Source: a virus
Taxonomy: Duplodnaviria > Heunggongvirae > Uroviricota > Caudoviricetes
Direction: 5' to 3' (one strand)
DNA: 30,051 nucleotides
IMG/VR virus record: IMGVR_UViG_3300017691_000005
Location: 1 to 30,051 of that record
The translations under genes were made by a program, and so were the position numbers. How positions within the stretch are numbered: the first letter of the stretch is position 1; the number at the start of each line of letters is the position of its first letter. The notes below the pieces were generated by a model. The model searched no databases. It was given only the letters and a program-made list of their open reading frames with translations, and had not been told where the DNA came from. Below are positions 1-6,752 of the stretch, piece by piece.

Positions 1-102
1 ACGTCTTTCTATGAAATTAGAGATGACTCTATAGAGTCTTAACTCTATCAATCTCAATCTCTTTATGAAACTGTCATCGCCAGCAACAATTGTTTTATCC
101 AT
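1..102 (-). CDS. Hypothetical protein, partial (runs off the left edge): MDKTIVAGDDSFIKRLRLIELRLYRVISNFIERR...
   Basis: Manually translated; open from ATG 102..100 to base 1. The ATG overlaps the TGA of the upstream minus-strand ORF (TGATG coupling). Not in the ORF track. Confidence 0.6.
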   Translation of the reverse strand, partial: MDKTIVAGDDSFIKRLRLIELRLYRVISNFIERR

Positions 103-311
103 CAGTAACCTCCTTCATAGAAATTAGAACCGAGTTGAACAGTAGTCTTACAAACTAAACATCTTAACATTGGATCATCTTCTTTGTTAATACCCGGATA
201 GAGAGGATATTCATCATTAGGACAGACGGGTGGTGGAATCTCTTCATTCTTAACTTTATCCCACCATCTATGTAAGTAACTCCATTTATTAGTATCTATT
301 TCTTCATTCAT
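102..311 (-). CDS. Small hypothetical protein with a possible metal-binding motif (CPND...CLVC)
   Basis: 69-aa ORF with C-P-x-D and C-x2-C motifs. No SD; a TAAGAT hexamer ends 7 nt before the ATG (possibly leaderless). Confidence 0.7.
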   Translation of the reverse strand: MNEEIDTNKWSYLHRWWDKVKNEEIPPPVCPNDEYPLYPGINKEDDPMLRCLVCKTTVQLGSNFYEGGY

Positions 312-400
312 ATAGTTATCTTACTCATTAATCTTAATAATAAGATAAGAACTTATAACTATAGAACTATAAGGTCTTTACTTATCTTAACTCTTAATTT
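311..400. repeat. AT-rich region with short direct and inverted repeats (TTATCTTA x3, AACTATA x3)
   Basis: TTATCTTA at 316-323 (+), 341-348 (-) and 382-389 (+). TAAGATAAG 341-349 and CTTATCTTA 381-389 form a perfect 9-bp inverted repeat. Confidence 0.5.
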
Positions 401-546
401 TAGACATAGACGTACCCTAAGGGTATAAGCCCTAGAGGTCGCTCACAACAATGTTGCTTAGGGGCTGGATTAGTCATTATGAACCCCGGTTTCCACCACG
501 TAATTACTTGTAGAAGTGAAGCGTGTTACCTGGCTACTTCATCGGG

Positions 547-594
547 AATAAAAAGAACCCCAAGTAGAGGCTCCTACCACTCTACTTGGGGTTC
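547..594 (-). terminator. Intrinsic terminator-like hairpin on the minus strand
   Basis: Perfect 15-bp stem 555-569/580-594, 10-nt loop, followed on the minus strand by UUUUUAUU. Confidence 0.7.
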
Positions 595-646
595 CGTGTT
601 ATTCGTACGAAAGTTCTCAAGGCAAAGAGTAGGAGTCTTACCTTCT
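547..646 (-). ncRNA. Candidate ~100-nt small RNA or attenuated leader with two hairpins bearing complementary loops
   Basis: Lies between a TTGACA-18-TATACT promoter and a 15-bp terminator-like hairpin with U-tract. No ORF. Loops CUCCUAC and (UG)GUAGGAG(C) are reverse complements. Confidence 0.6.
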
Positions 647-652
647 GCGTAT

Positions 653-682
653 AGTATATAAAGAACTATCCATGCCTGTCAA
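653..682 (-). promoter_or_regulatory. Leftward sigma70/SigA-type promoter
   Basis: TTGACA (682..677), 18-nt spacer, TATACT (658..653). Predicted start at A646. Confidence 0.7.
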
Positions 683-683
683 G

Positions 684-692
684 TGCTACACT
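684..692 (+). promoter_or_regulatory. Extended -10 promoter for the glycosyltransferase gene
   Basis: TGc-TACACT; SD AGAAAGGA at 703-710 ahead of ATG 720. The same GTGCTAnACT pattern recurs upstream of nrdH. Confidence 0.5.
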
Positions 693-719
693 GAACTTTT
701 CCAGAAAGGATATTAAACA

Positions 720-1676
720 ATGAGAATAAGTCTCTCAATGCCTGACACGATGATGGTTAGGTCAACCGGTCACGGTGAAGTAGGGTACCAGATGGTACGG
801 TCTTTACAGAAACTAGGAGTAGAGGTTCCCTACAGAGATAAAACGGCCCCTGTGGAAATAAACTACTGCCACCCTCAGGACTGGACGTGGAGTGGAGTTA
901 ATTCGTACAAGATAGGTTATCTAGCCTGGGAGAGCACTGAACCAAAGCAAGGGTGGAGTGAGATTATCAATAACGGCCCTGTCGATGAGATATGGACGCC
1001 TTCACCGCTTGTGACACAGTGGGTCAAGCAATGGACAAAAAAGCCGGTAGAAACTTATGAGCATGGAGTGGACGCATCCGTTTGGACTAAGAGAAAAAGG
1101 CGGGTGGACGATGTTATGCGATTTATTCATCCTGACACTTCTGCTAATCGAAAAAATGCTCCTATTACTGTTGAAGCATTCAAGCAAGTTTTTGGTGACT
1201 CAGATGACTATCGCTTGACGTTAAAACATGTCGGTCATTCTTTGGTTAGAAAGACCGGAGGTAATCTAAAGGACTTGCCGGGGGTTCTTAATATCAATGA
1301 ACTGGCTAGAGTTTATAAATACCATCACGTTCTCGTTACTCCAAGTGCGGGAGAAGGGTTCTTCTTACCAGGACTGCAAGCATTGTCAACTGGAATGCCC
1401 GTTATGCTCACAGACGCTTGGGTTCCTTATAGTAAGTATCTGATCAAAGAACTAAACATTGATTCTCAACTAGTTAATTCTCCTTGGCCCCAAGAACATC
1501 CAGGCAAAGTATTTGAACCAGATTACGATAGTTTAGTAAGTTCTTTTGATTATGTTGCCAATAATTTTGATACGGTCTCATATACCGCACACTCTTTGGC
1601 TAGTCAAGTTCAAGAAGAATATAGTTGGGAAAATGTAACTAAAAGAAGTTGGAAACACATTTTTGAAAGTTTTTAA
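720..1676 (+). CDS. GT-B fold glycosyltransferase (GT4-like)
   Basis: 318 aa. N-terminal TGHGEVG, WES motif, and C-terminal PSAGEGFFLPGLQALSTGMPV matching the EGFGLPxLEA signature. Ends in YSWENV. Confidence 0.85.
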   Translation: MRISLSMPDTMMVRSTGHGEVGYQMVRSLQKLGVEVPYRDKTAPVEINYCHPQDWTWSGVNSYKIGYLAWESTEPKQGWSEIINNGPVDEIWTPSPLVTQWVKQWTKKPVETYEHGVDASVWTKRKRRVDDVMRFIHPDTSANRKNAPITVEAFKQVFGDSDDYRLTLKHVGHSLVRKTGGNLKDLPGVLNINELARVYKYHHVLVTPSAGEGFFLPGLQALSTGMPVMLTDAWVPYSKYLIKELNIDSQLVNSPWPQEHPGKVFEPDYDSLVSSFDYVANNFDTVSYTAHSLASQVQEEYSWENVTKRSWKHIFESF

Positions 1677-5659: not shown

Positions 5660-6603
5660 TGGCTAAAAGCCAAAACGGTTGGAGTGCTAACGATCGTTCT
5701 GTAATTGCGTCATACTCACTACCCGGCGGTAAAGTATCACTAAGAAAAGGTGATGTTTCCGTAATTCTTCTCCATGCTGCAAATAGATGGCATAACGAAG
5801 TTGGTAAATTAGAGTGGCCGGGAATTTGGGGGTATGCCGAAAGACCTATTAGGGGTTCTACCACAACCCTTTCTAATCACGCTTCAGGTACAGCAATAGA
5901 CTGTAATGCGCCTAAACACCCATTGGGCGTACCGATTAGCAAATGCTTTACCGCAGCGCAAATAAAAAAGATAAGAGAAATTGTAAAATATTACGAAGGT
6001 GTTATTCGCTGGGGTGGAGAATACTCTCGTCCTGATGGTATGCACCTTGAAATCAACAAAGGTGCAAGTGAAGTTAAACGAATAGCAGACAAAATTCGTA
6101 ATGACATGTTCAATGCGACTGTCAAAGGTACTGTAGGAACTAATGCTAGTACTAAAAACAGTACTGATAAAAGAGTTCCTGATACATTACCAGTAATCCG
6201 TCAGGGAGATAAAAGCCCCTGGGTCGGTTTAATGCAGAAGGCTTTGAACTTCAACTCAAAAGATATTGATGAGAATTTTGGACCAGGTACAAAGACAGCC
6301 CTTGTGGCTCACCAAACAGCATCCAAAATAGGCCCTGATGGAGTTTGCGGGCAATTGAGTTGGGCGTCCCTCATTTCTAGATGGGGAGACTTGCAAATAG
6401 GCTCTAAAAACCCTGGTGTCGAGATTGTTCAGAACTTTGTTGGTTTTAGAGGTAAAGAATGTGATGGCGATTTTGGTCCTGCGACAAAGGCTAGAGTCCA
6501 AGCCGTTCAAAGATGGGCCGGTCTAAGTGATGATGGTGTTGTTGGAAATGACACCAGAAAAGCATTTGCCGGACTAGTAAAACCTTTGACAACTTCAGCC
6601 TAA
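5659..6603 (+). CDS. Endolysin: N-terminal M15-family Zn peptidase plus two PGBD-like cell-wall binding domains
   Basis: SNHASGTAID and DGMH peptidase motifs. Two repeats of the L-x-x-G...V-x-x-x-Q...DG-x-FGP-x-T...Q...DGVxG type. Confidence 0.92.
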   Translation: MAKSQNGWSANDRSVIASYSLPGGKVSLRKGDVSVILLHAANRWHNEVGKLEWPGIWGYAERPIRGSTTTLSNHASGTAIDCNAPKHPLGVPISKCFTAAQIKKIREIVKYYEGVIRWGGEYSRPDGMHLEINKGASEVKRIADKIRNDMFNATVKGTVGTNASTKNSTDKRVPDTLPVIRQGDKSPWVGLMQKALNFNSKDIDENFGPGTKTALVAHQTASKIGPDGVCGQLSWASLISRWGDLQIGSKNPGVEIVQNFVGFRGKECDGDFGPATKARVQAVQRWAGLSDDGVVGNDTRKAFAGLVKPLTTSA

Positions 6604-6615
6604 TAGTTATACAAT
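6586..6615 (+). promoter_or_regulatory. Strong sigma70/SigA-type promoter overlapping the endolysin 3' end
   Basis: TTGACA(6586-91)-18-TACAAT(6610-15). Predicted start at A6622. Confidence 0.7.
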
Positions 6616-6621
6616 ATCCAT

Positions 6622-6752
6622 ATCATACCGAGTCCGTGGTATGAGACGGGAATGGAAGTGTTACGCCATTCGTTGTGCAGGATATAGGAATTGTGGTTTC
6701 TTATCTTAGGATGGAATTAGTTACCAAAAACCCCGCTTCGGCGGGGTTTTTG
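6622..6752 (+). ncRNA. Candidate ~130-nt structured small RNA
   Basis: Bracketed by a promoter and a terminator. Three internal hairpins (6623-44, 6650-71, 6679-6707); G-U pairs favour the plus strand. No ORF with a convincing SD. Confidence 0.55.
6726..6751 (+). terminator. Intrinsic terminator with a C(UUCG)G tetraloop
   Basis: AAAAACCCCGC-TTCG-GCGGGGTTTTT. Confidence 0.92.

Follow-up and report, generated by a model that had tools for sequence, protein, structure and literature searches.

The question raised by this locus is what is encoded in the short interval between the strongest leftward promoter of a phage genome and the first leftward ORF, and what becomes of the transcripts that enter it. 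The window analysed here, a stretch of 30,051 nt, is the start of IMG/VR record IMGVR_UViG_3300017691_000005 (42% GC, 28 tRNA genes). The original prediction for this interval was a small RNA of the minus strand with two hairpins, the loops of which are exact complements. The promoter, both hairpins, the linker palindrome and the terminator of that prediction were all recovered on the minus strand, with a terminator stem of 16 bp (595..554), and they are arranged with their flanking genes as follows:

677..682, minus strand: -35 hexamer TTGACA of the leftward promoter (11/12 consensus together with the -10 hexamer)
653..658, minus strand: -10 hexamer TATACT, after an 18-nt spacer; the start is predicted near A646
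619..644, minus strand: 5' hairpin of 8-9 bp with one bulge and the 7-nt loop CUCCUAC at 635..629 (from folding and from the register of the BE-phage covariance model)
602..611, minus strand: palindromic 10-mer UUCGUACGAA in the linker, a weak middle hairpin (from the sequence; unique in the genome)
554..595, minus strand: intrinsic terminator hairpin with a perfect 16-bp stem (5' arm 595..580, 3' arm 569..554) and the 10-nt loop UGGUAGGAGC at 579..570 (from folding and a terminator scan)
577..571, minus strand: GUAGGAG in the terminator loop, the partner and exact complement of the 5' loop CUCCUAC
547..553, minus strand: U tract after the terminator stem, reading UUUUUAUU together with U554
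312..546, minus strand: remainder of the leader up to the first leftward ORF
102..311, minus strand: first ORF of the leftward operon (69 aa, Cys-rich, no family)
720..1676, plus strand: divergent glycosyltransferase gene, the synteny anchor for the homologous site in relatives

The promoter (682..653) is the best site within the first 3 kb and one of only three sites of the form TTGAC[AT]-N16-19-TA[TC]A[ACT]T in the 132,461-bp genome. No other sigma70-like promoter was found between the terminator and the first leftward ORF (312..546 scanned). The RNA predicted from this promoter (646..545, 102 nt) folds at -38.4 kcal/mol (z = -4.2), and none of 200 shuffled sequences folded as well. The minus-strand orientation, previously argued from a wobble pair, is borne out: the 5' hairpin (644..619) contains a U-G pair possible on that strand only, and it is absent from the centroid of the plus-strand fold. 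The statement that there is no ORF stands only in part, since a 60-aa plus-strand ORF (479..661) overlaps the element; this ORF had no Pfam or PHROG match and runs through the terminator. The suggestion that the RNA is undescribed was upheld: an Rfam search of window positions 1-1000 gave no family at the gathering score or at E <= 10, ARAGORN reported no tRNA on the element, literature searches returned no description of it, and no record annotates it as such a phage RNA. Within this genome alone, the loop complementarity is only moderately unlikely to have arisen by chance; the probability of a 7-nt complement to a large terminator loop in a random 90-nt window is 0.024.

The genes of the plus strand run from 720 to about 112 kb and include those for the glycosyltransferase, NrdHIEF, the endolysin, and head and tail proteins; DnaB, Pol III alpha, Ro60 and the large terminase are encoded further along the record, and a minus-strand block occupies 114 to 132 kb. 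An independent ENA contig (L009) connects the last base of the record straight to window position 484, and one Logan contig begins precisely at window position 381, so the minus-strand block continues through the end of the record into the window, with the element at its very beginning. This leftward block of small genes is probably early. Window positions 88-483 and the last 398 nt of the record (132064-132461) share about 84% identity, and positions 381-483 are 100% identical to its last 103 nt. Given this end identity, the L009 junction and the contig start at 381, window positions 1-380 must be one of two things, a second haplotype or a paralogue of the first leftward gene unit placed in tandem with it. 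The record is described as 'linear', but it probably stems from a circularly closed assembly that was cut at the end repeat. The candidate large terminase gene (52043-53845, plus strand) was recognised by PHROG terminase families (E = 8e-14) and not by the Pfam terminase models PF03237 and PF03354, and it lies far from the portal gene. The closest cultured relatives of the phage are the Streptomyces cluster-BE phages (Stanwilliamsviridae) and some Rhodococcus phages, with about 50% amino acid identity in the head protease.

DNA searches were of no help in finding homologues: blastn in 'distant' mode, with the window element and a similar element at 107 kb (see below) as queries against 50,697 phage records, returned nothing. 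Homologues were therefore sought through glycosyltransferase synteny, and were found only in that way. Searches of IMG/VR with the glycosyltransferase, NrdE and the 69-aa ORF yielded no syntenic element. In two uncultured relatives, the Logan contigs L015 and L016, the module is found immediately upstream of the glycosyltransferase homologue of each, on the strand opposite to that gene. It comprises a promoter, a 7-bp 5' hairpin whose stem is nearly identical in both, a middle hairpin, and a terminator in which an outer stem and an internal loop lead to a small inner hairpin capped by GAAA. Their loop pairs are UCUCGCU/AGCGAGA and CCCUACCC/GGGUAGGG. The 5'-hairpin pattern of these two contigs gave 22 matches in IMG/VR, most of which fell in one conserved coding sequence and none of which was an element, and a stricter form of the pattern found nothing in the JGI metagenomes. 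The GAAA-capped form is also present in Rhodococcus phage Trina, with the loop pair GGCAGUCC/GGACUGCC.

Phage Peebs has the same gene order, in which a leftward block with ThyX is followed by a 460-nt gap and then by the glycosyltransferase, RNR and endolysin genes. This leader gap matched 77 phage records, 17 of which were fetched for inspection. In these BE phages, two extended -10 promoters in tandem are followed by a 7-bp hairpin, the loop of which has 6-7 nt, and then by a 12-16-bp terminator whose own loop is complementary to it; the loop letters vary from phage to phage (GUUGCGACC, GAUGCGACC, GCUGCACC, CUCCACCU, GCUCCACCCA, GUGGCACC, GCUCGCCCC, GCUGGGACCAA and others). This direct form was found in L015, L016, Trina and 12 sampled BE-cluster Streptomyces phages. 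Six more phages (Peebs, Riptide, Daubenski, Elmer, Enygma and Naboo) have a variant form, in which the first hairpin pairs through its loop with CUGGCAG or CUGGCGG further upstream and a separate terminator then follows; the pairing in this form covaries too. The element is absent from the Loccivirinae phages and from contigs L011 and L017. The syntenic spot of L017 (2580-3150) holds tRNA-like genes and a GIY-YIG endonuclease gene, and that of L011 (2460-3160) a GC-richer leader of about 430 nt with three UUGUAG repeats and no kissing-loop module.

The site is constant: the element opens the leftward operon, on the strand of that operon, and the glycosyltransferase gene is divergent to it; the window element is placed in the same way. 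Whole-genome scans of NootNoot and Tomas located the element at the syntenic site only, apart from one or two other matches per genome that were not counted. The homologous region is left blank in the sampled records, except that it is labelled a tRNA in EGole and overlaps a hypothetical CDS in Elmer and Bmoc. In EGole (NC_055791; L046, 401-495), the 95-nt 'tRNA-Arg' of the record exactly covers the kissing-loop leader. This is almost certainly a false tRNA, ARAGORN having taken the 7-nt 5' loop UUGCGAC for an anticodon loop; the program yields such a 95-nt 'tRNA-Arg' in EGole only. The leaders of eight relatives had no Rfam match at E <= 1.

The relatives provide a far stronger case for loop pairing than the single genome. 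In 17 elements the two loops are exact complements over 7-11 nt, with at least 12 different sequences. When each terminator loop was compared with the upstream 62 nt of each of 16 elements, cognate complements of 7-11 nt (mean 8.5) were obtained in all 16, and the 240 non-cognate pairs averaged 3.6 nt; only 2.5% of the latter reached 7 nt, and each of these pairs came from close relatives with loops in common. The compensatory loop changes that the original prediction would lead one to look for in related phages were thus present, and in a plain MAFFT alignment of the 12 BE elements all seven kissing columns changed on both sides, with 87.5% of the cells paired. The values for the whole structure in this alignment were reached by none of 500 shuffles, and sliding the partner columns reduced whole-structure pairing from 81% to 37-50%. 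A covariance model built from the BE elements only, without the pseudoknot, recognised one site in each of five BE genomes, and its top match in the 132-kb genome was 541-651 on the minus strand (18.8 bits, E of about 0.02-0.03 with rough calibration), a full-length match with both hairpins in register. A further match of the covariance model, at 119490-119586, proved to be a plain GAAA-loop terminator at a gene end.

These comparative data, and the 16 cognate matches above all, establish that the loop complementarity is not due to chance but is real and under selection. As judged by comparison of sequences, the element is a member of a conserved, unannotated RNA family located at the operon entry in Stanwilliamsviridae-like actinophages. 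The same data bear on the reading in which the inverted repeats act as DNA (an operator, an origin or a recombination site) or are a chance feature of an ordinary terminator. The repeats do lie in a divergent control region, and the spacer of the second promoter (P2) of the BE phages also belongs to an inverted repeat. However, a DNA-binding protein needs a conserved sequence, and the repeats differ in nearly every lineage, whereas complementarity, strand, hairpin context and U tract are kept and G-U pairs occur in the helices; chance is excluded by the cognate matches. We regard this reading as scarcely credible.

Comparison with the relatives also disposes of two subsidiary ideas. It had been suggested that CUCCU in the 5' loop could act as an anti-Shine-Dalgarno sequence, but the loops of relatives (AUGCGAC, CUGCAC, CUGGGAC, GGUCGCGC) are unrelated to it. 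The palindromic linker does not hold up as a dimerisation site either: in some relatives the middle hairpin is absent, and where it is present it is not a palindrome.

A genome-wide scan of terminator-like hairpins for an upstream loop complement of at least 7 nt identified only two, the terminator at 554..595 (minus strand) and a hairpin at 107186-107223 (plus strand). The latter belongs to a unit (107093-107232, plus strand; L004, 4094-4232) in which the near-consensus promoter is TTGACA-17-TACAAT (at 107093) and the loop of the 5' hairpin includes GGUCGCGC. A middle hairpin, which is an 18-nt perfect palindrome, and a 14-bp terminator with the 10-nt loop AAGCGCGACC, which contains GCGCGACC, complete the unit. 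Its architecture is like that of the window element and its sequence is unrelated. We consider it a probable second copy of the kissing-loop design, and no more than probable because the complement criterion by itself is only modestly significant (P = 0.024 per terminator, with 13 strong terminator-like hairpins of at least 12 stem pairs and a loop of at least 6 nt tested). A looser genome-wide scan for such terminators gave 1-3 matches in shuffled sequence, so the case for this copy is based on its stronger features and not on that scan alone. There is no convincing ORF in the approximately 320 nt downstream of the 107-kb copy. The hairpin at 98387-98424 has a 10-nt loop, but with only a 6-nt complement and no promoter it was not counted. 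The third near-consensus promoter of the genome lies in a cassette at 6586-6752 (plus strand), between the endolysin and fibre genes, with a predicted RNA of about 135 nt, three hairpins and a UUCG-loop terminator; this cassette has no loop-loop complement and represents a different RNA.

What, then, would the pairing of the two loops do? Our preferred reading, to which we assign a probability of roughly 0.5, is that the element is a ligand-free kissing-loop gate on transcription that also yields an abundant RNA of about 100 nt. Host RNA polymerase would start at the consensus promoter and transcribe the 5' hairpin, a short linker and a terminator whose loop is unusually large. The region of the 5' loop would pair with this large loop as soon as it emerges, in a kissing helix or in an extended alternative helix enclosing the 5' arm of the terminator. 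Because the linker is short, loop pairing and a complete terminator stem would not easily coexist, and the pairing would delay or prevent completion of the terminator, so that some polymerases read through into the operon; the remainder would terminate and release the abundant short RNA. The pairing would be driven by 6-11 Watson-Crick pairs rather than by a ligand, and the balance might be set by the speed of transcription, by Mg2+, by a protein or, in trans, by the released RNA.

The different parts of this reading differ in strength. Conservation of the architecture, of the position and of loop-loop complementarity with full covariation is shown by the comparison of relatives; that pairing favours read-through rather than termination is proposed by analogy (see below). 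Folding predictions and linker geometry bear on whether the pairing controls termination. When the transcript was cut after the terminator loop, the loop complement was the closing helix in all 16 elements folded, and part of the 5' arm of the terminator was predicted to be paired upstream in each of them. For the window element, 14 of the 16 arm nucleotides were paired upstream in the cut transcript, with a folding energy of -22.0 kcal/mol, versus -6.3 kcal/mol for the 5' part alone. Once the 3' arm is present, the terminator state wins thermodynamically in all elements, and a gate would therefore need a kinetic or steric basis. The 9-11-nt complements exceed the 6-7-nt 5' loop and extend into the stem of the 5' hairpin, and the use of stem nucleotides would be useful for an alternative fold but useless to the kissing of pre-formed hairpins. 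A crude estimate of linker geometry (2.8 A per stacked pair and 6.5 A per linker nucleotide) indicated that the linker barely spans a coaxial stack of hairpin, kissing helix and full terminator in most members and is too short for it in Coruscant (5 nt) and CeilingFan (8 nt); the long linkers hold a middle hairpin, which shortens them. The alternative fold, the complements reaching into the stem and the short linker point, as far as such modelling goes, to control of termination rather than to a mere structural clamp. Of the options put forward in the original prediction, the one favoured by loop covariation, linker geometry and the folds of truncated transcripts is thus attenuation, with capture of the emerging terminator loop by that of the 5' hairpin.

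The gate has points against it. The terminators are long and perfect with good U tracts, so that the majority of transcripts may go no further, and the functional product may be the terminated RNA. An unrecognised phage-specific promoter beyond the terminator could feed the operon independently. The main rival is a free-standing small RNA gene, in which nearly all transcripts stop and the RNA of about 100 nt is a product acting in trans on host or phage targets, the loop pairing being a tertiary clamp that would confer compactness and nuclease resistance or give the RNA a shape recognised by a protein. A strong consensus promoter combined with a strong canonical terminator is what such a gene would have, the two tandem extended -10 promoters of the BE phages feed one terminator, the other two consensus promoters of the phage also drive predicted short terminator-ended RNAs, and the 28 tRNA genes attest to a heavy investment in small RNAs. 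However, there is no conserved single-stranded stretch that could serve as a seed; what is conserved is the hairpin stems (among the BE phages, that of the 5' hairpin) and the U tract, and the only complementary parts that are exposed, the loops, vary from phage to phage and are partners of one another. Furthermore, the operon behind the module and the orientation of the module never change, no further promoter is recognisable ahead of the first gene, and a clamp of pre-formed hairpins needs no complementarity into the 5' stem. We consider a free-standing small RNA gene possible but doubtful. The claim of a small RNA is in this way retained as far as it concerns an undescribed minus-strand RNA; as a description of the element, leader of the leftward operon is preferable to free-standing gene.

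The closest parallel to the gate is the guanidine-IV riboswitch (mepA or GGAM-1 motif), in which kissing of an upstream hairpin with the terminator hairpin leads to read-through, and stretching of the linker has been proposed to keep the outer terminator pairs from forming (Lenkeit et al. 2020, PMC7736828; eLife 2024, PMC11611296). In both systems a short linker connects an upstream hairpin to the hairpin of an intrinsic terminator, and the two loops pair, in the riboswitch as a kissing loop or pseudoknot, and covary. The riboswitch loops, however, have highly conserved nucleotides that form the guanidine pocket, and their kiss is ligand-dependent, whereas the phage loops are hypervariable and fully Watson-Crick over 6-11 nt, with pairing predicted to be ligand-free. 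The riboswitch precedes genes for guanidine exporters and carboxylases, and the phage element precedes small phage ORFs, ThyX and others. Because it has no conserved loop nucleotides, has fully Watson-Crick loops and occurs in a phage operon, the phage RNA family fails to qualify as a member of guanidine-IV, but by analogy it may share the mechanism.

Hairpin loops of 6-7 nt that are fully complementary and form kissing complexes are also found in the ColE1 RNA I/RNA II, pT181 and pIP501 plasmid systems, and in pT181 and pIP501 the kiss decides terminator formation in the nascent leader. The loops of these systems are on two RNAs from opposite strands, so that their complementarity is automatic, whereas those of the phage element are both on one transcript and need compensatory change to stay complementary.

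In its layout the unit resembles the lambdoid PR'-6S RNA-tR' arrangement, in which a short terminated leader RNA likewise lies between a strong promoter and a long operon. In the lambdoid case the short RNA accumulates and release is by Q loaded at the promoter, with no RNA tertiary pairing. A protein-dependent antitermination of this or of the N/nut type would make the terminator a barrier released by a phage or host factor, the hairpins the binding site of that factor and the short RNA a by-product. The similar layout is in its favour, as is a second hairpin or terminator before the first gene in L015, L016 and the BE phages, which would make two serial barriers. The unit here, however, heads a leftward block of small genes that is probably early and not the late genes, and the genome yielded neither a Q-type (PF06530) nor a NusG/LoaP-type (PF02357) protein, which is weak evidence given that two families were tested. 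A protein site should keep its sequence, but here complementarity alone is kept, and if the unit is transcribed first by unmodified host polymerase a phage factor would not yet be present. Protein-dependent antitermination seems to us decidedly unlikely.

The comparison with phi29 pRNA made in the original prediction proved weak. The pRNA is a three-way-junction RNA of 120-174 nt that forms rings on the prohead of small podoviruses without a classical terminase. The likeness is that of small phage RNAs, each made from a strong early promoter and each with two hetero-complementary loops that change in concert from one relative to the next; such covarying loops are the hallmark of pRNA. An assembly RNA of this kind, in which a loop of one molecule pairs with that of another to give dimers or rings, for example in packaging, would also accommodate the linkers of Coruscant and CeilingFan, which seem too short to allow a kiss within one molecule while the terminator stem is fully formed. 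However, the element consists of two or three simple hairpins ending in a terminator, with no paired 5'/3' helix, no three-way junction and no match to pRNA in Rfam; it sits at the start of an operon, and the phage is a large 132-kb relative of siphoviruses that encodes its own large terminase. We judge this explanation to be very improbable.

If the gate exists, it would be a ligand-free relative, in principle, of the guanidine-IV mechanism, and a kissing-loop-controlled intrinsic terminator maintained by compensatory evolution alone, standing at the entry to a leftward and probably early operon across a whole family of large actinophages. It would also offer a natural sequence-programmable terminator switch for actinomycete synthetic biology. 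The idea is directly testable, as many members are cultured and sequenced phages of Streptomyces laboratory strains that are not pathogenic (NootNoot, Lululemon, Starbow, Tomas, Coruscant and others). Recognition of the family would correct the annotation of the region now left blank, of the EGole 'tRNA' and of the hypothetical CDSs overlapped in Elmer and Bmoc. A more speculative extension, which we think unlikely, is a self-timing switch based on sense-sense RNA kissing, by which the operon would shut itself off without a protein. Early in infection the nascent leader would pair in cis and allow read-through into the leftward genes; the terminated RNAs of about 100 nt, with both loops left free by the complete stem of the terminator, would accumulate and kiss nascent leaders in trans, blocking the cis pairing and so bringing about termination.

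Two further features were observed in the BE leaders. About 215-330 nt after the glycosyltransferase start (for example in L047, L046 and L050), beyond the terminator, there is a second, sequence-conserved domain of about 110 nt. Within it, GUUCUCCA complements UGGAGAAC loops that lie upstream. In Starbow and MindFlayer this loop is that of the terminator, and in EGole, NootNoot and Bmoc it belongs to a small hairpin. Also in this domain, AAGGGUCUUA complements the terminator loop of the Peebs-type phages. These complements suggest that a larger network of loop pairings may form in read-through transcripts. In addition, the P2 spacer (about 386-400 in L047) complements the 3' arm of the 5' hairpin, over 12 bp in NootNoot and with covariation in Lululemon and Tomas, so that transcripts from the first promoter can fold differently from those of the second.
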